Below, piece by piece: positions 1,739-61,039 of a stretch of DNA of 64,000 nt (position 1 is its first letter; every line of letters begins with the position of its first letter). The stretch is from NCBI GenBank assembly GCA_007376385.1, contig VMGC01000005.1:1-64000 (forward strand). The letters run 5' to 3'. The notes below the pieces were generated by a model. The model saw only the letters and a list, made by a program, of their open reading frames with translations, searched no databases and had not been told where the DNA came from. The DNA is from Parcubacteria group bacterium Gr01-1014_8 (GTDB lineage: Bacteria > Patescibacteriota > Minisyncoccia > Phycocordibacterales > UBA2100). The translations under genes were made by a program, and so were the position numbers.

Positions 1739-2437
1739 ATGAATAAAGAAAAACTAGTCTTGAGAGTACGGAATCGCTCGATAGAGGCGATGATGGCCGT
1801 CGCGCTTTTTTGCGCAGTGTTTGCCGTTACTCCTTTCGCATCTGCGAGCGGCTCCGATTATTATTACGACAATAATTACTATCAGGGCTCGTACAACGAT
1901 AATTACTACAATTACGGTAATTACAATTACAACAAGCCTACGTGCTCGATGACACTCACGTATGGTACTCCACGTACGTCGCAGAATTACAATTCGATCT
2001 ACGACGAACCTGCAACCTTGAGTTGGACCACGTCGTATGCGAATTCAGCATACATTTCTCCAGACGTTGGGTCTGTGGGAATCAGCGGTTCACGCATCGT
2101 ATATCCGCGAGGAAACCAAACCTACACGATGCGCGTGAACGGCTCATGGGGCGAAGGAAATTGTCAGGTAACTGCGGTTCATCCGTACGCGTCTGTCTAC
2201 AACAGCTTCTACCATTCGCAGCCCTACGTTCAGCCGTACAATTACGGATACACGTATCCTGCAGTGCCAGCGGTATCGTATGTAGCGCTCAAACAGATGC
2301 CATACACTGGCGTCGGCTTCGGACCTATGGGTACAGCGATGTTGTGGCTCTCAATCATTCTTCTTGGCGCAGTAGGCGCAGGAGCGATCGCAACACGAAA
2401 CGAAACCCTTCGAAAGCTCGTTTTCTTGCGCGGCTAA
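1739..2437 (+). CDS. Paralog of the upstream surface protein: signal peptide (…AVTPFASA), Tyr/Asn-rich region, the same conserved Cys domain (KPTC…SWTTSYANSA…DVGSV…SGSR.VYP.G.TYT), MPYTG + TM + basic tail.
   Basis: ORF 1646..2437. Start moved to ATG 1739, which has GGAGG 8 nt upstream. Domain alignment to gene 1 done by eye. Confidence 0.6.
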   Translation: MNKEKLVLRVRNRSIEAMMAVALFCAVFAVTPFASASGSDYYYDNNYYQGSYNDNYYNYGNYNYNKPTCSMTLTYGTPRTSQNYNSIYDEPATLSWTTSYANSAYISPDVGSVGISGSRIVYPRGNQTYTMRVNGSWGEGNCQVTAVHPYASVYNSFYHSQPYVQPYNYGYTYPAVPAVSYVALKQMPYTGVGFGPMGTAMLWLSIILLGAVGAGAIATRNETLRKLVFLRG

Positions 2438-3681
2438 ACGCTTCCACGCGAGCGAATTTCTTCCCTGATGCGTGATAGGAACTCCTCGCACTTTTGTGCG
2501 GGGAGTTTTCCTTTATCGCGGCTCTCCACGGTGATTGTCTGTGAATTCACTTCTTCGTCGCCAACGACGACAAGGTAGGGAATTTTCTCGACTTTTCCGG
2601 CACGAATGCGTTTGCCCAGAGTTTCTGCGGAATCGTCCATTTCGGCGCGGATCCTTTCATTCTTCAACATCGAGACTATTTCTTTTCCGTATGCAGCTTG
2701 TTTTTCTGAAACCGGAAGGACTCTAACCTGGATTGGAGAGAGCCAGAGAGGGAACGCTCCAGCATATTTCTCTATGAGGAATGCCATGATGCGCTCGATG
2801 GCGCCGATGGATGAGCGATGCACGACGAATGCGCGCTTCTTCGAACCGTCTGAGGCGACGTAGGTCAGGTCAAATCTGTCGGGCATGCAGAAGTCATATT
2901 GAACAGTGAACGCGGTATCTTCTTTGCCGTTGGCGTTCTTCATCTGCACGTCTATCTTTGGCCCATAGAATGCGGCCTCGTCCTTGGCTTCGATGTATTT
3001 TCCATCTCTTTTTTCCAATACCTCGCGCAGGAGTTTCTCGCTTTTTTCCCACGCAGCGTCGTTCTTGTAGTACTTTACTGTATTCGAAACGTCGCCCAAA
3101 GAAAGACGATAGCGATAGTCTTTTCCGTACGAAAGCCCGAAGACGCCCGCAATGTATTCGATGAGATTGAGGGCCTGACTCACTTCTTCTGCAGCCTGTT
3201 CTTCGCTGGCGCATACGATGTGAGCGTCAGCCAAGCAGAACGTGCGAACTCTCTGCAGTCCCATCAACTCGCCGGATTGTTCGTAACGGTACAATTGCGC
3301 AAGTTCGGCAATGCGCATCGGGAGTTCTCGATAACTTCGAGGTTTCGAGAGATAGAGTTCAAAGTGGTGCGGGCAGGTCATCGGGCGGAGCATGAATTCG
3401 TCGTCGTCAGTGACTATTGGGGGGTACATTGAGTCTTTGTAGTGAGGGTAGTGCCCAGACTTTTTGTAGAGGTCTAGTTTTGCGATATCAGGGGTTTTCA
3501 CGTGCATATAGCCGCGCTTTATTTCCTCATCAATGACGAATCTCTCGAGTTCGCGGTAGATTGCCGCTCCCTTTTCGGTGAAGAGGGGAAGTCCTTTCCC
3601 TACCGTGTCCGAAAATGTGAAAAGGTCCAGCTCGCGTCCAAGCTTTTTGTGATCTCTCTCGCTCATCTCGTTGTCTGCCAT
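2434..3681 (-). CDS. thrS: Threonyl-tRNA synthetase, short form (class II catalytic core + anticodon-binding domain; no N-terminal TGS/editing domain)
   Basis: Class II aaRS motifs and ThrRS-like core (…FMLRPMTCPHH…, …HRSSIGAIERIMAFLIE…). Start taken at MADNEMSER (ATG 3681). Confidence 0.8.
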   Translation of the reverse strand: MADNEMSERDHKKLGRELDLFTFSDTVGKGLPLFTEKGAAIYRELERFVIDEEIKRGYMHVKTPDIAKLDLYKKSGHYPHYKDSMYPPIVTDDDEFMLRPMTCPHHFELYLSKPRSYRELPMRIAELAQLYRYEQSGELMGLQRVRTFCLADAHIVCASEEQAAEEVSQALNLIEYIAGVFGLSYGKDYRYRLSLGDVSNTVKYYKNDAAWEKSEKLLREVLEKRDGKYIEAKDEAAFYGPKIDVQMKNANGKEDTAFTVQYDFCMPDRFDLTYVASDGSKKRAFVVHRSSIGAIERIMAFLIEKYAGAFPLWLSPIQVRVLPVSEKQAAYGKEIVSMLKNERIRAEMDDSAETLGKRIRAGKVEKIPYLVVVGDEEVNSQTITVESRDKGKLPAQKCEEFLSRIREEIRSRGSV

Positions 3682-3689
3682 ATATAAAA

Positions 3690-3905
3690 TGTATGTAACT
3701 AAAAATGCCCAAGCGAACGTACGATTTTTATCTCGTACACTCGCTAGGGCGATCTCGGACCGCGGTTCCACCTAGCTTTCCGCCGTTTGGCGGACACTTC
3801 TTCAACGGTCAGATTAGGCTTTCGCTCGCGCTCTCGCGCATTCCCGGTTGGTAGCCGAGACAATCTCTAACTCCACCATCGTAACGCGGCTTATCTTTGC
3901 GGTCA
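3690..3905 (-). promoter_or_regulatory. Putative T-box riboswitch leader (Thr specifier ACC) upstream of thrS
   Basis: Minus-strand AGGTGGAACCGCGG at 3759..3772 matches the T-box core (A)GGGUGGNACCGCGG. Upstream AGAGA (S-turn-like) and a candidate specifier ...GGCUACCAACCGG... Stem-loops follow. Confidence 0.45.
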
Positions 3906-3907
3906 AC

Positions 3908-3932
3908 ATGACCGACATCGTATGTCGGTCAT
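3908..3932. repeat. REP palindrome ATGACCGACATCGTATGTCGGTCAT
   Basis: Perfect hairpin-forming palindrome immediately 3' of the RAYT gene. Confidence 0.7.
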
Positions 3933-4582
3933 TCCAACGTGAAAGGGCGAACCTCTGCAATCTCTATATCTTTCAAGTATCGAGCAGTGTCGTTCTTGAT
4001 AGCGCCAGGTTTTTCCTGAAAAAAATCTGTCGTCAGAACAGATGGAAAATTCTTTTCCCCGGAATAATCCAAGTAACTACTCCAGCGGTATGTATCCAAA
4101 TGTTTCAGTGCGGCTGTCGTGCTACCTATGTTGCGGTTTCGCCAGTCTCGAGCAGTTTGCAGATAATCCAGTGGATTGAGATGGACATAGTGCAGAATGT
4201 GAAGGTAATGCGCATCAGATGTAATTCGAATTTTCTTAGTTCTTCCCTGAAACAAGTAACCGTTCCGTTTATAGCGTTGATTGAAGTATTTCGCGTAGCC
4301 TACATTAAGTTTTCGAACAAAAAGCGATAATCCTTTCTCGATCTGTTCTGTAAGCAGAAGGTGATAGTGATTCTTCATCAGGCACCAGCCGTGAATATCA
4401 ACAATTCGCTTTCTCGATGACGGACCTACGAAGTCTGCCGTTTCTTTGCGTCGCCTTGTATTTTCTGCTGGTTTCGTATCGTTAAATTCGTACATGTCAT
4501 GAACGAATCTGGCATAATCGAGTGTATCCAAAAAGATATTCTTTTTCTCAACCCCTCGATTAAGTACGTGATACAGCTCCAT
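3929..4582 (-). CDS. REP-associated tyrosine transposase (RAYT; IS200-like Y1 HUH family, COG1943-like)
   Basis: N-terminal YHVLNRG...IF.D..D...F, HUH motif GWCLMKNHYHLLL, Tyr motif YAKYFNQRYKRNGYLFQGRTK. Flanked by REP palindromes. Confidence 0.8.
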   Translation of the reverse strand: MELYHVLNRGVEKKNIFLDTLDYARFVHDMYEFNDTKPAENTRRRKETADFVGPSSRKRIVDIHGWCLMKNHYHLLLTEQIEKGLSLFVRKLNVGYAKYFNQRYKRNGYLFQGRTKKIRITSDAHYLHILHYVHLNPLDYLQTARDWRNRNIGSTTAALKHLDTYRWSSYLDYSGEKNFPSVLTTDFFQEKPGAIKNDTARYLKDIEIAEVRPFTLE

Positions 4583-4590
4583 GCTGCAAG

Positions 4591-4712
4591 TATGACCGAC
4601 ATACGATGTCGGTCATAGAGGGTTATCCACTCGGGGTTACTGCTCCCAATGATTCGACTTACAATGTTCGACTTACGATGTCGGTCACTAGATGTCGGTC
4701 ACTACTACATTT
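4591..4712. repeat. REP cluster: one full REP (TATGACCGACATACGATGTCGGTCATA, 4591..4617) plus degenerate REP units (…CGACTTACGATGTCGGTCACTAGATGTCGGTCAC…)
   Basis: Direct sequence comparison with the REP at 3908. Confidence 0.7.
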
Positions 4713-8498: not shown

Positions 8499-9136
8499 TC
8501 GCACGCTATAATCAGAGCGTGGGAATTCGGTATGTCGTAGGGATCGATGAAGCTGGGCGCGGTGCACTCGCGGGTCCCGTATGCGTGGGAGCAGTGCTGT
8601 ATCCGCTCGATTTCGACTGGCGAGAGGCATTTGCTCTTGTTACGAAGAAAGGAAAGCCGAAGCTGCGTGATTCAAAACAACTTTCCGCACAACAACGAGA
8701 CGTTTTGTATGAATATATTGCCGCTCATGGCCGCTTGAAACATGCAGCAGCTTTTGTCAGCGCAGAGATCATAGACGCAATAGGCATTGTGAATGCAGCG
8801 CACGAAGCTGCTGCAGTTGCGATGTCAAAACTCGGTGTTGAGCCGGGGCGCGTTGCAGTGTTGCTTGATTCCGGGCTTCGCGTGCCTCGGATCTGGGAGC
8901 AGGAATCATTTATTCGAGGCGACGAGACGATACCTGCCATATCATGTGCGTCCATTGTTGCGAAAGTCACGCGGGATAGGCATATGGAAGAAATGTCGGA
9001 ACGATACCGAGCGTACGGATTCGAGAGGCATAAAGGATATGGCACTCAGGAGCACCTAAAGAAGATACGATCTGACGGGCTTTCGTCATTTCACAGGGTA
9101 ACGTTCTGCACAAATTTTTCTTCAGTCCCAGACTGA
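8489..9136 (+). CDS. rnhB: Ribonuclease HII
   Basis: GIDEAGRGALAGPV motif. ORF begins at 8462, but the RNase HII core begins near MGYIARY (ATG 8489, inside the IR arm); start uncertain. Confidence 0.8.
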   Translation: MGYIARYNQSVGIRYVVGIDEAGRGALAGPVCVGAVLYPLDFDWREAFALVTKKGKPKLRDSKQLSAQQRDVLYEYIAAHGRLKHAAAFVSAEIIDAIGIVNAAHEAAAVAMSKLGVEPGRVAVLLDSGLRVPRIWEQESFIRGDETIPAISCASIVAKVTRDRHMEEMSERYRAYGFERHKGYGTQEHLKKIRSDGLSSFHRVTFCTNFSSVPD

Positions 9137-9173
9137 TCGAGAAAACCATCCGATTGCGAGAATGTAATACGGC

Positions 9174-9202
9174 TTGAATTTTAGCGCTTCCCGAGCTATA
9201 TT
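9174..9202 (+). promoter_or_regulatory. Sigma70-type promoter TTGAAT-N17-TATATT, giving a leaderless or near-leaderless rpmF transcript
   Basis: Hexamers at 9174..9179 and 9197..9202; ATG at 9210. Confidence 0.4.
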
Positions 9203-9209
9203 GCCCTCC

Positions 9210-9491
9210 ATGGTTGTACGAATGCGGGTAAACCGCTCCAAGACAGGTAAGCGCCGAAGTCATCATGCGCTTGCTGCTGCTCGTCCCGTCACATGCGATT
9301 GCGGCGCAGAGCGGCTTAGCCACCGGGCATGCCCGTCGTGCGGCAAATATAACGGCAAGGTCATCATTGATGTCGTGGCTCGCGCAAAGAGACAGTCCAG
9401 GCGCGACAAGAAACGACAGAAAGAATTGCGCGCAGCGGGCCAGGAGAAGGACACTACTAATAAAGAAACTAAGCAAGAAGTAACCACGTAA
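9210..9491 (+). CDS. rpmF: 50S ribosomal protein L32 with Lys/Glu-rich C-terminal extension
   Basis: MRVNRSKTGKRRSHHAL…C.CG…CPSCG zinc-ribbon signature. Start is 9210 (leaderless) or 9222. Confidence 0.75.
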   Translation: MVVRMRVNRSKTGKRRSHHALAAARPVTCDCGAERLSHRACPSCGKYNGKVIIDVVARAKRQSRRDKKRQKELRAAGQEKDTTNKETKQEVTT

Positions 9492-16432: not shown

Positions 16433-19400
16433 ATGGCTAAAGCTAAGCACGTCAGGCCGCAAAAGTATTTCTCGCGCTTCAAGAAACCTCTCGTTGAATT
16501 GCCGAATCTTGTTGAGTCACAACTCGAATCGTTTCGCCAGTTCGTTGAAGGGGGAGCAGAGAAAGTGTTCAGGGAGTTCTCGCCGATCAGCGACCACTCT
16601 CAAAAGAAGTTCGAACTTAAACTGACGAAGTTCACTTTCGGCGCGGTTCGTTGGGACGAACACTATGCAAAGCGCACGATGCGCACGTATGAGGCGCCGC
16701 TCTCGATGGTTGCGAAGTTGAAGAACAAAACGACCGGGGAGGAACGAGAGCAGGAAATATTTCTCGCTGACTTTCCGTGGATGACCGTGCACGGCACGTT
16801 CATCATCAACGGCGTCGAACGTATCGTCGTTCCTCAGCTTGCGCGTTCGTACGGTGTCTTTTTTGAAAGCGTTCCCTACAAAGGAAAGAACTATTTTGCC
16901 GCGAAGATAATCCCTGCCCGCGGTGTATGGATAGAAATTGAATCAGACGCTGACGGCGGCATGTACGTAAAAATAGATAGAAAGCGCCGATTTCCCGTCA
17001 CCTCGCTTCTGCGAGTTCTTGGTCTTGCGTCCGACAAAGAGATGCTTGCACGATTCGACAGATCGCCGTCTGCAAAAGAAGCGGTAACGAACACGCTTGT
17101 ACACGACACCGCCAAGACCGTTGAGGAAGCGTGCGTCGAGATATATCGCAGACTTCGCGACGGTGATATCGCGACTCCAGATTCTGCACGGGAGCATGTC
17201 GCATCCATTCTCTCTCCAGAGCGATACGACCTTTCTCGCGTCGGCCGCTTTCATTTCAACCGCAGATTCGACCTTCCCGTTACTGAAAAGCATCTTGCAG
17301 AATCAGCGCTCACGCAGGACGACATTGTCCGTATTGTGTCGAACATCGCAGAGTTGAACGTTAATCCCGTCGCGCAGCCTGACGACATTGACCATCTCGG
17401 TTTCCGCCGAGTGCGCTTTGTTGGCGAGCTCCTTGAACAGCGCATGCGCATCGGCCTTTCTCGAATGAAGCGAAACATTCAGGACCGCATGGCCATGGTG
17501 GACGCTGAAACGGTTCTTCCGGTCCAATTTGTGAACCCGCGGCCGTTCCAAGCATCCATTAGAGAATTCTTCACGACCGACCAGCTCTCACAGCTGATGC
17601 AGCAATACAACACGCTTGATGAGATAGAACACCTTAGAACGCTTTCGACGCTTGGTCGCGGTGGTCTCACGTCCGAGCGCGCAGGCCTTGAAGTGCGTGA
17701 CGTTCACGCGTCGCATTATGGCCGCGTCTGTCCTATTCACACGCCTGAAGGCAAGAACATCGGGCTCGTTCTCCACATGTCGCTCTTCGCAAGACCGAAC
17801 GAGTTCGGCATCATCGAGACGCCGTATGCAAAAGTTGAGAAAGGAAAGGTCACCAAGGAGATCGTATACATCAACGCGATCGAAGAAGAGCGTTACGCTA
17901 TCGCGCACGCAGCAACGAAGCGCGATGAAGACGGGAAGATACTTGAAAAGCACGTCGAGGTTAGAAAGGGAGGCGAGCCGCTTCTTGTTGAGCGTACCGA
18001 TGTTGATTTCATGGAAGTTGCAACAAACCAGCCGTTTTCAGTTGCGACCTCGCTCATTCCGTTCGTCGAGAACGACGATGCGAACCGAGCGCTTATGGGC
18101 TCGAACATGCAGAAGCAGGCTGTGCCATTGGTAGTGCCCGAGGCTCCAGTCGTTGCAACGGGCATCGAAGCAGAAGCTGCGCGAGATTCCGGACGGTTGA
18201 CTCTTGCAGAAGATGCAGGCGAGGTTATCTACGCGGACGCTCGCCTTATCAAGGTCAAAAATTCCGACGGCAAAACAAAAGATTACGAGCTTGTGAATTT
18301 CTCGCGAACGAACGGTTTTACGACGTTCCACCAGCGTCCGGCAGTACACGTCGGCGATCCAGTGAAGCGCGGCGCTGTTCTTGCTGATGCCTCGACTTCT
18401 GTCGGCGGCCAGCTCGCGATCGGCCAAAATGTTCGTGTTGCATTCTTGCCATGGTTCGGGGCGAACTACGAAGACGCCATCGTCATTTCAGAAAGACTTG
18501 CAAAAGATGCGCGCTTTACCTCGATCCACATGGAGGAATTTATCTGCGTTGTTCGCGATACGAAACTCGGTCCAGAGGTTACGACGCACGACATTCCGAA
18601 CGTAAGCGAATTCAAACTCCGTAACTTGGACGAGGAAGGCATCATTCGCATTGGTGCAGAAGTCCGCCCCGGCGACATTTTGGTAGGAAAAGTGACACCG
18701 AAAGGCGAGACCCAGCTCACGCCGGAGGAAAGACTCTTGCATGCGATCTTCGGCGAGAAAGCTAAGGACGTGAAAGACACATCGCTTCGCATGGACGGCG
18801 GGAAACGCGGTCGTGTCGTCGGCGTGAAAGTATTTTCCCGCGAGACCGGCGACCAGCTCGAGAGCGGCGTCATCAAGCGTGTGCACGTAGAAGTTGCTCA
18901 GCTTCGAACAGTATCAGTCGGCGACAAGCTCGCAGGACGACACGGAAACAAAGGTGTTATTTCGCGCGTGCTTCCAGAGGAAGATATGCCGTACGACACG
19001 GATGGCAATCCAGTGGACATCATATTGACTCCGCTCGGTGTTCCATCTCGTATGAACTTGGGACAAATATTGGAACTTCACCTCGGACTCGCAGCGAACA
19101 CGCTTGGCTACCAGGCCATCGTGCCATCGTTCGCAGGCGCAACTGAAGAAGAAATCCGAGAGGAACTCAAAAAGGCAGGTTTCGACGAAACAGGAAAATT
19201 CACTCTTTTTGATGGACGCACGGGCGAAGCATTTGCGCAGCCTGTTTCCGTCGGCGTCATGTATATGCTGAAGCTGCACCACATGGTTGAAGACAAGATA
19301 CACATGCGTTCCATCGGTCCGTACTCGCTTACAACGCAGCAGCCGCTCGGCGGCAAAGCCCAGAACGGAGGGCAGCGGGTCGGAGAAATGGAAGTGTGGG

Positions 19401-57729: not shown

Positions 57730-60729
57730 ATGATAACGCGGGTTACGGTACGGGCGAAGAGAGAAGATGCTCGGGCCGATGGATACCTGCGAACTCTCAA
57801 AAATAGGTTTCCCAAGGTCAAACTGAAGGGCGTGGCTGTAACGGAGGCCTATACCATTGATGCCAAACTTTTGCCGAAGGAACTTGAAAAAATCGCGAAG
57901 GGTCTCGCAAATCCGATAATAGAAGAATATGCTACAAAGGGCGTATTAGCCCCCGAAACTTTTTCTGTAGCAGTAGAGATAGGATTCTTGCCGGGTGTTA
58001 CTGATAATGTCGGACACACGGTGAGGGAAATGATAGAGGATACGACAGGACGCAAATTTAAAGACGCCGCCGCCGTCTATACTTCGAGATTTTTGTTTCT
58101 TACGGGTTCGACAGCGACTGATGAAGCCGCAAGAATGGCGCGGGAATTTTATAACCCGCTTATCCAGCGCGCGTCGGTGCTTTCGTATTCTGAGTTTAAG
58201 AAAGGTGTACCGATCATAGTACCCAAGGTTGAACTGCACAGCACAGTAAAAACGGATGAGGTGAATTTAGAAGTCGATGACGATGAGTTGATGAGAATAG
58301 GCAAGGAGGGAATTGTGAACAAGGACAACACAAGACAAGGACCGCTCGCCCTCTCTCTTCGCGCGATGCACATCATTCGCGATTATTTTCGTACGATTGG
58401 CAGGGATCCAACTGACGTTGAACTCGAGGCACTCGCGCAGACATGGTCCGAACACTGCAAACACACGATCTTCGCCGACCCCCTGGATGAGATAGAGGAG
58501 GGAATTTACCGGCGATATATCAAAGGTGCAACGCAAAAGATACGGAAAGACAAGGGTAAGAAAGATTTCTGCGTGTCGGTATTCACCGATAACTCTGGCG
58601 GGATCGCTTTCGACGATAAATATCTCGTCACACACAAAGTCGAGACGCATAATTCGCCATCAGCTCTGGATCCATTCGGCGGCGCGATAACGGATATCGT
58701 TGGTGTGAATCGCGATTGTCTTGGGTTCGGATTAGGTGCAAAACCAATTGCAAACGTGTACGGATTTTGCGTTGCTGATCCGACTGACGAGACGCCTTAT
58801 TTTCGCGACAAAGAAAAAACACAACCGCTTCTCTCCAACCGACGAATTCTTGAAGGGATCGTTCAGGGCATCAATGCAGGTGGAAACCAGAGTGGTATTC
58901 CCACTCCTCTTGGTTTTGTTGCTGTTGACCCAAGCTTTCGCTCAAAACCTCTGGTGTATGGCGGAACGGTCGGACTTATTCCAAGAAAATCTCACGGGCG
59001 AAAGCTTCACGAAAAAGAAGCGCGCGCTGGCGATTACGTAGTGATGATAGGCGGGAAGGTTGGTCTCGACGGCATACACGGTGCCACATTTTCCTCGGAG
59101 GCCTTGGCGAAGGGTTCGCCTGCGACGGCCGTGCAGATAGGCGACCCCATTACGCAAAAGAAATTCTCCGACGCTATCGTACGAGAAGCGCGGGATGCAG
59201 GTCTTTTCAACAGCATTACCGATAACGGCGCAGGCGGACTCTCGTCGTCGGTGGGTGAGATGGCGAAAGACTCCGGTGGGTTTGTCGTCGACTTGGAAAA
59301 AGTCCCACTCAAATACCCAGGACTCTCTCCGTGGCAGATATGGATATCAGAATCGCAAGAGCGCATGACGCTCTCGGTACCGAAGTCGAAATGGAATGCG
59401 CTGAAGAAAATATTTGATAGGCACGGAGTGGACGCGTGGCGAATAGGCGAGTTCACAAAATCAGGTAAAGCAATTGTGAGGTGGAGGGGGACGAAGGTGA
59501 TGGATATGGATATGAAATTCCTTCATGACGGCCGTCCCATCGAGGAGCAGAAAAGCCAGCCAGTCTTGAGGACATTCGCGGAGCCGCTTCCTGAGGAGCG
59601 GCCGAAAGATCTAGGAAAGACGCTTGTCGAAATGCTCGCTCGGCCGTCTATTGGCAGTATCTCGTTTATCTCACAACAGTACGACCACGAAGTTCTCGCG
59701 ATGGCTGTTACAAAACCATTGCAAGGACGGGGGAGAGTGAATGCGGATTCGGGAGTAATCCAGCCGTTGCCTCACTCCAATCGCGGCGTGGTGCTCGCGC
59801 ATGGATATGCACCGTGGTATTCGAACATTGATACATATGCGATGGCAGCAGCTTCCATTGATGCGGCGATTCGAAATGCGGTTGCTGCAGGCGCATCGCT
59901 CGACCATTTGGCGATACTCGACAACTTTTGCTGGTCGAGTTCGAACGAGCCGGGGCGCTTATACGAATTGAAACGTGCAGCCGAGGCTTGCTACGACATT
60001 GCGGTTGCCTACGGCACGCCATATATATCAGGCAAGGATTCAATGTTCAATGATTTTCGAGGATATACGGAGAGTGACGTGCAGATCCACATCGCGGCGC
60101 TCCCGACGCTTCTTATTTCCGCTATCGGCGTGATTCCCGACGTCCGTAAGGCCGTCACGCTCGACGCAAAACAGCCGGGCGACCTTGTCTATCTTATCGG
60201 CGATACTAATGACGAACTCGGTGCATCCGAATATTTCACAATGCTCTCTGAACGTACATCGACCTACGAAGTCGATAGGGATGACCGACATACGATGTCG
60301 AACATTGGAAGCAATGTCCCGCGCGTGGACACGACGAAAAATATGAAAACATATAAAGCTCTTGAAAAAGCGATACAGAAAGGCCTTGTCGCATCAGCAA
60401 TCTCTGTTGGGCGCGGAGGACTTGCCGTCGCGCTCGCGAAAACTGCAATAGCAGGGAAGTTGGGAATAAACGCGGACCTGACGAAGTTGCTTGGCACTGC
60501 AGGAACGGATGACTCAAGACTGTTCTCGGAAAGCCAAGGGCGTGTTCTCGTGAGCGTAAACTCAAAGCTGAAGCGGGAATTCGAGAAATCATGTCAAGGT
60601 TCAACCTTGACATTAGTGGGCGAGGTGATGAAAAGGAATTCGCTCGAAGTAGACCTTTCGGAGAAGCGGCTGAATATTCCGCTCAAAATGCTCTCGGCAG
60701 CATATCAGAAGCCGTTCAAAAATTGGTGA
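57730..60729 (+). CDS. purL: Phosphoribosylformylglycinamidine synthase subunit PurL with fused N-terminal PurS-like region
   Basis: 999 aa. AIR-synthase-related domains ×2. A separate purQ lies downstream. Confidence 0.9.
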   Translation: MITRVTVRAKREDARADGYLRTLKNRFPKVKLKGVAVTEAYTIDAKLLPKELEKIAKGLANPIIEEYATKGVLAPETFSVAVEIGFLPGVTDNVGHTVREMIEDTTGRKFKDAAAVYTSRFLFLTGSTATDEAARMAREFYNPLIQRASVLSYSEFKKGVPIIVPKVELHSTVKTDEVNLEVDDDELMRIGKEGIVNKDNTRQGPLALSLRAMHIIRDYFRTIGRDPTDVELEALAQTWSEHCKHTIFADPLDEIEEGIYRRYIKGATQKIRKDKGKKDFCVSVFTDNSGGIAFDDKYLVTHKVETHNSPSALDPFGGAITDIVGVNRDCLGFGLGAKPIANVYGFCVADPTDETPYFRDKEKTQPLLSNRRILEGIVQGINAGGNQSGIPTPLGFVAVDPSFRSKPLVYGGTVGLIPRKSHGRKLHEKEARAGDYVVMIGGKVGLDGIHGATFSSEALAKGSPATAVQIGDPITQKKFSDAIVREARDAGLFNSITDNGAGGLSSSVGEMAKDSGGFVVDLEKVPLKYPGLSPWQIWISESQERMTLSVPKSKWNALKKIFDRHGVDAWRIGEFTKSGKAIVRWRGTKVMDMDMKFLHDGRPIEEQKSQPVLRTFAEPLPEERPKDLGKTLVEMLARPSIGSISFISQQYDHEVLAMAVTKPLQGRGRVNADSGVIQPLPHSNRGVVLAHGYAPWYSNIDTYAMAAASIDAAIRNAVAAGASLDHLAILDNFCWSSSNEPGRLYELKRAAEACYDIAVAYGTPYISGKDSMFNDFRGYTESDVQIHIAALPTLLISAIGVIPDVRKAVTLDAKQPGDLVYLIGDTNDELGASEYFTMLSERTSTYEVDRDDRHTMSNIGSNVPRVDTTKNMKTYKALEKAIQKGLVASAISVGRGGLAVALAKTAIAGKLGINADLTKLLGTAGTDDSRLFSESQGRVLVSVNSKLKREFEKSCQGSTLTLVGEVMKRNSLEVDLSEKRLNIPLKMLSAAYQKPFKNW
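60281..60300. repeat. REP-derived sequence ATGACCGACATACGATGTCG embedded in-frame in purL (encodes …DRDDRHTMS…)
   Basis: 19/23 identity to the REPs flanking the RAYT gene; lies in a segment that looks like an insertion relative to the PurL core. Confidence 0.5.
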
Positions 60730-60730
60730 T

Positions 60731-61039
60731 ATGACTGACCATCAACGCACACCTCAGGATATCGGAAAATCAATTCGCAAGGCCCGCGAGGAACTAGAAC
60801 AGGTCTTGCAAAAGGAGGGAAATGCGCACGGAGGCCTTTTCATTGACCAGAAGGTTACAAAATGGCTAGAGAATATGAGGACAAAGCACGCAAACTTTGA
60901 GAAGGTAAAAGCGTACCACATCATGGACCGTAGAGGACCACCTCCGGACGCACTAATTGATGATTTTTCCGGCGAAGATTCGGTACTTAAGTTTTTTGAC
61001 AAAATTCTGGAAGATGATCGTTCCAGCAGAAAACCATGA
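60731..61039 (+). CDS. Hypothetical protein (102 aa) between purL and purQ
   Basis: ORF only; not PurS-like. Confidence 0.35.
   Translation: MTDHQRTPQDIGKSIRKAREELEQVLQKEGNAHGGLFIDQKVTKWLENMRTKHANFEKVKAYHIMDRRGPPPDALIDDFSGEDSVLKFFDKILEDDRSSRKP

Follow-up and report, generated by a model that had tools for sequence, protein, structure and literature searches.

The question raised by this locus is how a short palindrome that flanks a transposase gene could come to be part of the coding sequence of a conserved biosynthetic enzyme. The window, by which we mean the whole stretch of 64,000 nucleotides analysed here (contig VMGC01000005.1 of Parcubacteria group bacterium Gr01-1014_8), contains a purL gene as well as a gene resembling those of REP-associated tyrosine transposases (RAYTs), where REP stands for repetitive extragenic palindrome. 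A sequence-only reading of the window had proposed that a REP like those at the RAYT-like gene was inserted in frame in purL. We consider it very likely that PurL residues ~843-859 are encoded by two tandem, same-orientation and partly decayed REP hairpins of the family that flanks the lineage's RAYT gene. The purL sequence is homologous to the RAYT-flank REP, it is extra when compared to REP-free orthologues, it has kept the reading frame and it encodes a variable coil.

The REP-like stretch does lie in purL as had been claimed, and the 20-mer ATGACCGACATACGATGTCG at 60281-60300 (+) is an exact copy of 4592-4611 (+) and of 3913-3932 (-), which belong to the palindromes flanking the Y1 open reading frame (ORF). 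When up to 3 mismatches are allowed this 20-mer has 6 matches in the window, compared to 0.00 expected from 100 dinucleotide-preserving shuffles. The full 25-nt palindrome is ATGACCGACATACGATGTCGGTCAT, whose inverted copies bracket the ORF at 3929-4582, and the copy at 4592-4616 is the master copy matched by the purL relic. The earlier figure of 19/23 matching positions pointed to the right homology but understated it, with the 20-mer being exact and the identity reaching 23/25 over the full palindrome. A chance match is ruled out by the shuffles and by this 23/25 identity. The two mismatches of this relic, which we call module B, are adjacent (GGTC to GAAC) and have broken the outer stem, while an inner 6-bp stem is kept. 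The stretch is indeed coding and in frame within the ORF at 57730-60729, yielding ...YEVDRDDRHTMSNIG... in the product.

Missing from that reading was a second degenerate hairpin, module A, which lies 4 nt upstream of module B in the same orientation and makes the purL relic a tandem of two modules. Its core CGACCTACGAAGTCG agrees with the REP core at 13/15 positions and, by hand comparison, with that of the L127 purL hairpin at 14/15 (L numbers are DNA loci and P numbers are proteins in our comparisons), and its position in the orthologue of L001 is taken by a perfect 10-bp hairpin. When the purL stretch is folded as single-stranded DNA it forms two 6-bp hairpins with a z of -2.4, to be compared with the values for the intact window copies in Table 1 and with -4 to -8 for the perfect hairpins of relatives. 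An Rfam search of the purL region returned nothing at E<=1.

The identity of the host gene is clear. Its product has Pfam FGAR-AT_linker, AIRS and AIRS_C matches that are each above the cut-off, so that the linker, two AIRS/AIRS_C repeats and homology to a solved PurL are all present, and residues 217-946 match the Thermus thermophilus PurL structure 3VIU with E=1e-63 (HMMER). The invariant motifs of the family are retained in the alignment, and the product is 100% identical to the phosphoribosylformylglycinamidine synthase annotated in Parcubacteria group bacterium Gr01-1014_8. The gene is part of a purine operon with purQ, purE, purM, purC and purB. The residues S833-E834-Y835 and P864, which are invariant in the PurL family, enclose the loop that holds the repeat-derived segment.

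To judge whether the segment is an insertion, we compared the loop in a MAFFT alignment of 120 homologous proteins and mapped it in 83 purL DNA loci by tblastn. The loop is short in most of the 120 aligned homologues, and the hairpin-free loops of the 83 loci mainly have 12 aa or 18-19 aa, a few reaching 23 aa. In the closest hairpin-free relative (P0002/L003, 79% identity) the loop is FTMLSEKAGEQLLGVNVP, while in the window it is FTMLSERTSTYEVDRDDRHTMSNIGSNVP, which is 11 aa longer; against the commonest class of 12 aa the excess is 17 aa. The HMMER alignment to 3VIU has a 15-residue gap exactly here, between GASEY...LS-ER and IG-NVPRVD. The previous estimate of ~15 extra residues is accordingly right when measured against 3VIU, and becomes 11 or 17 aa with the other two references. 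The five longest loops among the 83 loci (23-31 aa) are that of the window, with its decayed copy, and those of L001, L002, L004 and L005, in which perfect in-frame hairpins with 10-11-bp stems are found. Among the relatives, every purL loop longer than the hairpin-free loops of the clade carries a perfect hairpin there, and L127 has an 11-bp hairpin within a 12-aa loop. Orthologue alignment had been suggested as the check on the insertion; since the REP-free relatives P0002/L003 and P0010-P0014 lack the segment and the loops of 23-31 aa each carry a DNA hairpin, the insertion reading stands.

Structure prediction had been suggested as well, and it places the segment in a coil of low confidence that is flanked by two helices. 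In the AlphaFold2 model of PurL (built from 72 sequences, mean pLDDT 83.5, pTM 0.86) this coil spans residues 844-867 between the helices 834-843 and 868-883, with pLDDT <50 at 846-850 and 10-residue block means of 59 and 65. The repeat-derived segment probably sits in a surface loop of PurL. It belongs to the second, C-terminal AIRS/AIRS_C repeat, which we take to be the non-catalytic half of the enzyme.

Looking at the same loop in relatives shows that it has been occupied by hairpins of different sequence. The hairpins are CAATGACCGACTTACGATGTCGGTCATTG plus ATATGGGTTTACGAAACCCATAT in L001, TGACGGACATCGTATGTCCGTCA in L002, ATATGGACACGGCGTGTCCATAT in L004 and AATGATGGACATCGTAAGTCCATCATT in L005, and across lineages at least five hairpin families occupy this one PurL loop. 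L001 has two hairpin modules at the window's two positions, with its module B from the same REP family. The L005 purL hairpin sequence (ATGATGGAC...GTCCATCAT) is that of the hairpins flanking L005's own RAYT homologue. The reuse of one loop by at least five families could reflect either tolerance or targeting.

Table 1. Features of the window that bear on the purL repeat (positions in the 64,000-nt window)
Feature	Position	Strand	Details
RAYT-like Y1 (HUH) tyrosine transposase gene, 217 aa	3929..4582	-	HYH and YVHLNP motifs read from sequence
Intact REP, 11-bp stem, 3-nt loop; 3' flank of RAYT gene, inverted relative to 5' copy	3908..3932	-	DNA fold z -5.3
Intact REP, 12-bp stem including flanking T/A pair; 5' flank of RAYT gene	4592..4616	+	DNA fold z -6.2
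Degenerate third REP upstream of RAYT gene, ATGTTCGACTTACGATGTCGGTCAC, 21/25	4664..4688	+	
Fused purS-purL (FGAM synthase II), 999 aa	57730..60729	+	Intact ORF hosting the REP relic; ORF list and translation
Codons 843-859, TSTYEVDRDDRHTMSNI, repeat-derived part of loop between S833-E834-Y835 and P864	60256..60306	+	Alignments
Module A, second degenerate hairpin, CATCGACCTACGAAGTCGATA	60257..60277	+	7/9 arm pairs around ACG; encodes (T)STYEVD
Module B, REP relic, ATGACCGACATACGATGTCGAACAT	60281..60305	+	23/25 against RAYT-flank REP; encodes (D)DRHTMSNI

The RAYT-like ORF of the window has a Pfam Y1_Tnp match of 29.8 bits (cut-off 23). Its master copy is a short imperfect palindrome with hairpin capacity within the size range of about 20-40 nt that characterizes REPs, and inverted copies around a Y1 transposase gene are seen in the window, L005, L062 and L089. 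The RAYT homologues of the latter three are 56-59% identical to that of the window and are also flanked by hairpins; the L005 gene spans 8709-9386 by tblastn, and the flanking hairpins of L062 and L089 have other stems. In the genome of L001 the RAYT homologue flanks (L062 5205-5231 and 6041-6069) belong to the TATAAGGTTTACGAAACCTTATA family and the copies dispersed in genes to the ATGACCGAC family, so several families with the same apex coexist in one genome. In 74 kb of Gr01-1014_8 (the window plus 10 kb of L207) we found no REP copies besides the three at the RAYT gene and the two purL relics, and therefore call this genome REP-poor. The high copy number and mainly extragenic location used to define REPs are not found in these 74 kb of the window genome, and the copies of the relatives are mostly inside Pfam-confirmed genes. 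One further candidate, the quasi-palindrome ATGACCGTGCACGGCACGTTCAT with REP-like ends at 16781-16803 of the window, was rejected as a REP copy, as it encodes the conserved native MTVHGTFIINGVERIV region of RpoB.

Three other observations concern the RAYT region itself. The RAYT-like gene holds an in-frame REP-like hairpin in its own coding sequence (window 4417-4441; L005 9218-9248), with a perfect 12-bp stem and the peptide MMDIVSPS in L005 and a decayed form in the window (ETADFVGPS). At 3742-3975 (-) there is a sub-threshold match to a T-box leader (29.5 bits, gathering 93, E=2.6e-4), which is situated upstream of the threonyl-tRNA synthetase-like ORF 2434-3771 (-) and overlaps the REP at 3908-3932. 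The REP region 4583-4618 gives a sub-threshold CRISPR-DR20 match (23.5 bits vs 42), probably due to palindromy alone.

Other hairpins and small genes occur in and around purL. A perfect palindrome with a 10-bp stem, ATGTCAAGG-TTCAA-CCTTGACAT, lies at 60591-60613 in the 3' part of the window purL and codes for SCQGSTLTL. L001 (9038-9060) and L003 (12561-12587) have the same stems in the corresponding place, and there is no length change relative to other PurL proteins; since this palindrome was not found elsewhere among the examined loci, it appears gene-specific and not a dispersed repeat. Two REPs of a further family (TCGGGAG...CTCCCGA), arranged as a head-to-head doublet, are in frame near residue 620 of the PurL of L001 (7985-8035) and L203 (3835-3882), the net gain in P0003 being 7 aa, and the PurL of L004 has another hairpin at about residue 918 that adds 4 aa. 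Between purL and purQ the window has a 102-aa ORF (60731-61039) with no Pfam match on record, and relatives have different small or unrelated genes at this position, such as an acetyltransferase or a methyltransferase. Genes for 23S_rRNA_IVP / Avd-like four-helix bundles recur near the purine/folate cluster (L001 18846-19176, L002 1748-2119, L003 3873-4235 and L206 6160-6534).

The same kind of repeat is found in other genes of the relatives. Some of the loci come from a contig scan with TGACCGACN7GTCGGTCA, a pattern that proved too loose, with most of the 118 matches listed being GC-rich unrelated genomes and the genome of the window not being among them; those used were L053, L062, L069 and L079, all from the L001 genome, together with L082 and L089. 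In the L001 genome the REP family of the window is in frame in several Pfam-confirmed genes, which encode phosphomannomutase (PGM, with the peptide DDRHRMSVI), PurD, an arginase-family protein (DDRHTMSVI, nearly the DDRHTMSNI of the window) and a 6-phosphogluconate-dehydrogenase-like (6PGDH-like) protein that carries a REP doublet. A Pfam-confirmed glycosyltransferase gene of a Yanofskybacteria genome also has an in-frame copy, and the in-frame repeats in other enzymes of relatives further include PurB and dihydrofolate reductase (DHFR). The length that is added varies: the PGM repeat accounts for 11 aa and the doublet in the DHFR of L001 for 8 aa, while the arginase-family alignment gave no information on insert length. 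A hairpin of L005 at 9399-9425 was rejected as a DHFR insertion; it flanks the RAYT gene on the 5' side, and the N-terminal extension of DHFR there is probably untranslated. The families at these loci share the apex GAC-WT-(ACG|CGT)-AW-GTC and differ in the lower stem. The window REP lacks the terminal GTAG or CGTC of the class described by Di Nocera and colleagues, and has a CGTA(G/A/T)/TACG motif at the hairpin apex instead. The frame that starts from the second base of ATGACC... opens with a TGA stop, so only two frames are open, and these encode D-R/G-H/L-x-M/K-S-V or M-T-D-x-x-C/S-R/P-S.

A mechanism that would account for these features starts with the RAYT-like HUH enzyme copying the hairpin, in the form of single-stranded DNA, into purL, or alternatively with replication template-switching between hairpins. 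Selection would then retain only those copies whose frame and length avoid stops, and the surviving copies would be those that sit in permissive loops. The purL copy would be a neutral or nearly neutral passenger, decaying in a REP-poor genome, with the adjacent 2-nt change having destroyed its outer stem. A tolerated passenger is the most likely status of the purL insertion. The suggestion that it is a case of protein sequence innovation finds no support here; the outer stem is lost and the copy looks like a tolerated, decaying passenger. Nor is it an unusual example, as had been proposed: the insertion is not isolated, with the same superfamily being in frame in many genes of related Parcubacteria, and in-frame REPs and Rickettsia palindromic elements (RPEs) are in the literature (PMC3733652, PMC10969869).

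Several results weigh against this account. No transposition event was observed, and no target motif or target-site duplication is evident in about 15 hairpin flanks. The best NCBIfam match of the RAYT-like ORF, REP_Tyr_transpos, has 39.9 bits and is under the cut-off of 80, and its protein has zero PDB sequence matches at E<=1. Plain insertion leaves native-length copies unexplained. The excess of the PurD repeat is only 2 aa, and the PurB genes of L002 (14919-14939) and L005 (20891-20911) carry genome-specific perfect hairpins at the same codon (~200) in a segment of native length, with no gap relative to three hairpin-free relatives nor to the solved structures 7T24 and 4NSL. As judged from these alignments, the PurB copies appear to be length-neutral replacements of native sequence and not insertions. 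In the P0008-P0012 group the distribution of the insert is also at odds with the gene tree. P0008 and P0009 (85.5% identical) share an insert with a hairpin identical at 21/21 nt, while P0011 (92.1% identical to P0008) and P0012 (92.9% identical to P0009) keep the ancestral SEKAGEQxIG loop without an insert (purL loops of L002/L204 vs L205/L206); 219 informative sites support the gene tree that separates P0008 and P0009, compared to 49 and 35 for the others. Two gains at one site, short-tract recombination and homogenisation are all possible explanations of the shared insert. Finally, the hairpin codons are conserved above the synonymous background. The purL genes of the window and L001 use the same codon for 47.6% of shared amino acids but for 5/5 in module B (p about 0.024), and in the P0008/P0009 hairpin 6/6 codons are identical against a background of 0.469 (p about 0.011), while the flanking codons differ synonymously. 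This could mean constraint or homogenisation, and not a pure passenger. The purL genes are saturated at synonymous sites between lineages, yet perfect stems persist. With such saturation, the codon identity of module B and its match to the master copy imply that the copy is younger than the divergence of the genes, or has been homogenised against the master.

A different route by which the purL segment could have arrived is homologous recombination with a repeat-carrying allele of a relative, or its rewriting from a further REP copy through gene conversion or template switching. We regard this as unlikely, though it overlaps with the account given above, the repeat origin being the same in both. 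The two modules of L001, at the same positions and with module B of the same REP family, speak for it, as does the insert of P0008 and P0009 that spans the gene tree separating them, and the length-neutral PurB copies indicate a copying process besides simple insertion. However, module B agrees with the REP at the RAYT gene of the window itself, also in its CATACGATG apex, where the purL copy of L001 has CTTACGATG. In the four-taxon test, by sliding identity and quartet sites, no clear recombinant tract was found that would explain the insert shared by P0008 and P0009, nor an extended one around the loop.

It is less probable still, and we think rather improbable, that the hairpins are of REP origin but are kept because the DNA or mRNA hairpin, or the D-R/G-H-x-M-S-V peptide, is functional; it might serve in translational pausing, be bound by an RNase or the RAYT, or form a beta-turn module. 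The identical P0008/P0009 hairpin codons amid differing flanking synonymous sites fit this idea, as do the persistence of perfect stems in saturated genes, the reuse of one loop by at least five families and the conservation of the 60591-60613 palindrome stems in three purL genes. On the other hand the window copy lacks its outer stem, the close relatives P0002 and P0010-P0014 manage without a hairpin, and zero Rfam families match the region. Repeats in unrelated proteins and beside a transposase are also in keeping with a mobile repeat that has young or homogenised copies.

The last alternative, that the similarity is a coincidence with a native palindromic PurL loop or that the transposase-side repeats were copied from purL, could appeal to there being only three to five family copies in 74 kb of the window genome and to native quasi-palindromes in genes such as rpoB, but is effectively refuted by the 23/25 identity with 0 shuffle matches, by the lack of the segment in REP-free orthologues, and by the finding of this palindrome in frame in five or more unrelated genes of one relative and beside the RAYT homologues of four genomes.

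Beyond the repeat origin of the purL segment, a broader and rather unlikely reading is that the Parcubacteria of this clade have a REP superfamily compatible with coding, in which the apex is conserved and the stems are lineage-specific. Its members would be written mainly into genes, would return to the same enzyme sites with stems that match the repeat of their own genome, and could take the place of native sequence without changing its length, as in PurB. If this were true, it would imply hairpin-directed copying or exchange, by RAYT strand exchange or template switching, acting as a localised rewriting of coding DNA and not only random insertion filtered by selection.

Comparison with known systems helps to place the purL repeat. 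In the IS200/IS605 family, the Y1 HUH enzyme (TnpA of IS608) recognises hairpins in single-stranded DNA and carries out seamless excision and integration, with IS608 integrating 3' of a fixed tetranucleotide. By analogy, seamless transposition of this type would permit in-frame, scar-free gain and loss. The hairpins here differ in that no such target motif was found around them and the element carries no gene. The REP/REPIN-RAYT systems of Pseudomonas and E. coli have in common with the window a lone Y1 (HUH) gene, inverted flanking repeats, lineage-specific repeats and doublets (Nunvar 2010, PMC2817692; Bertels and Rainey 2011, PMC3116915). Classical REPs lie outside genes and reach hundreds of copies per genome, whereas the window genome has few relic copies in 74 kb and the copies of its relatives are mostly intragenic. 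Compared to classical RAYTs, the window transposase scores under the NCBIfam RAYT cut-off. A full-text literature search, limited in coverage, gave no paper in which Patescibacteria or the candidate phyla radiation are connected with RAYTs or REPINs.

Intragenic REPs of the GTAG/CGTC class are known from O. terrae, R. conorii, Thauera and other bacteria, and loops or linkers were suggested as their location (Di Nocera et al. 2013, PMC3733652). Like the repeats described here, these are palindromes of 20-40 nt, some of them associated with RAYTs, that occur as singles, dimers and clusters inside known genes and add roughly 8-30 residues. Those families are mainly from Proteobacteria, Verrucomicrobia (O. 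terrae) and Rickettsia (PMC3733652), while ours is from Parcubacteria of the candidate phyla radiation. The window family also differs in having a near-perfect 25-nt palindrome with a conserved apex and without terminal GTAG/CGTC. Most copies in the loci examined here are intragenic, compared to a minority there, and here one enzyme loop takes different families by lineage and some copies are length-neutral. The RPEs (Ogata et al. 2000, as cited in PMC10969869 and PMC3733652), given as about 150 bp with 44 insertions reported in R. conorii metabolic genes in PMC10969869, are similar in being palindromic selfish repeats of a small genome that are in frame in many unrelated housekeeping genes, with a recurring peptide and predicted fold-tolerant sites. 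RPEs are set apart by their size of about 100-150 bp, or 30-50 aa, as the units here have 23-29 nt and 8-9 aa. No dedicated transposase was found for RPE-4 and RPE-6 of R. conorii, which are of the CGTC class (PMC3733652), whereas the hairpins here flank a RAYT-like gene.

In-frame palindromic repeats are therefore already established, and what is new is the Parcubacteria setting, the recurrent use of a single loop and the native-length copies. Such repeats offer bacteria one of the few routes by which conserved enzymes can gain or exchange short peptides with no duplication of the gene. Examples known so far are mostly from Rickettsia with a few from Proteobacteria and Verrucomicrobia, and this case extends them to the small, gene-dense genomes of the candidate phyla radiation. 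It also suggests caution in annotation, as differences in enzyme loop length in such bacteria can be repeat-derived and not adaptive. With at least five families, presence and absence among close relatives and native-length copies, the PurL loop is a natural experiment that could be used to test the dispersal or renewal of REPs by RAYT-type enzymes. When set beside the known systems, the purL insertion as a single event is an ordinary example, and it is the family context, with its recurrent loop, genome-specific stems and length-neutral copies, that makes it of moderately greater interest.

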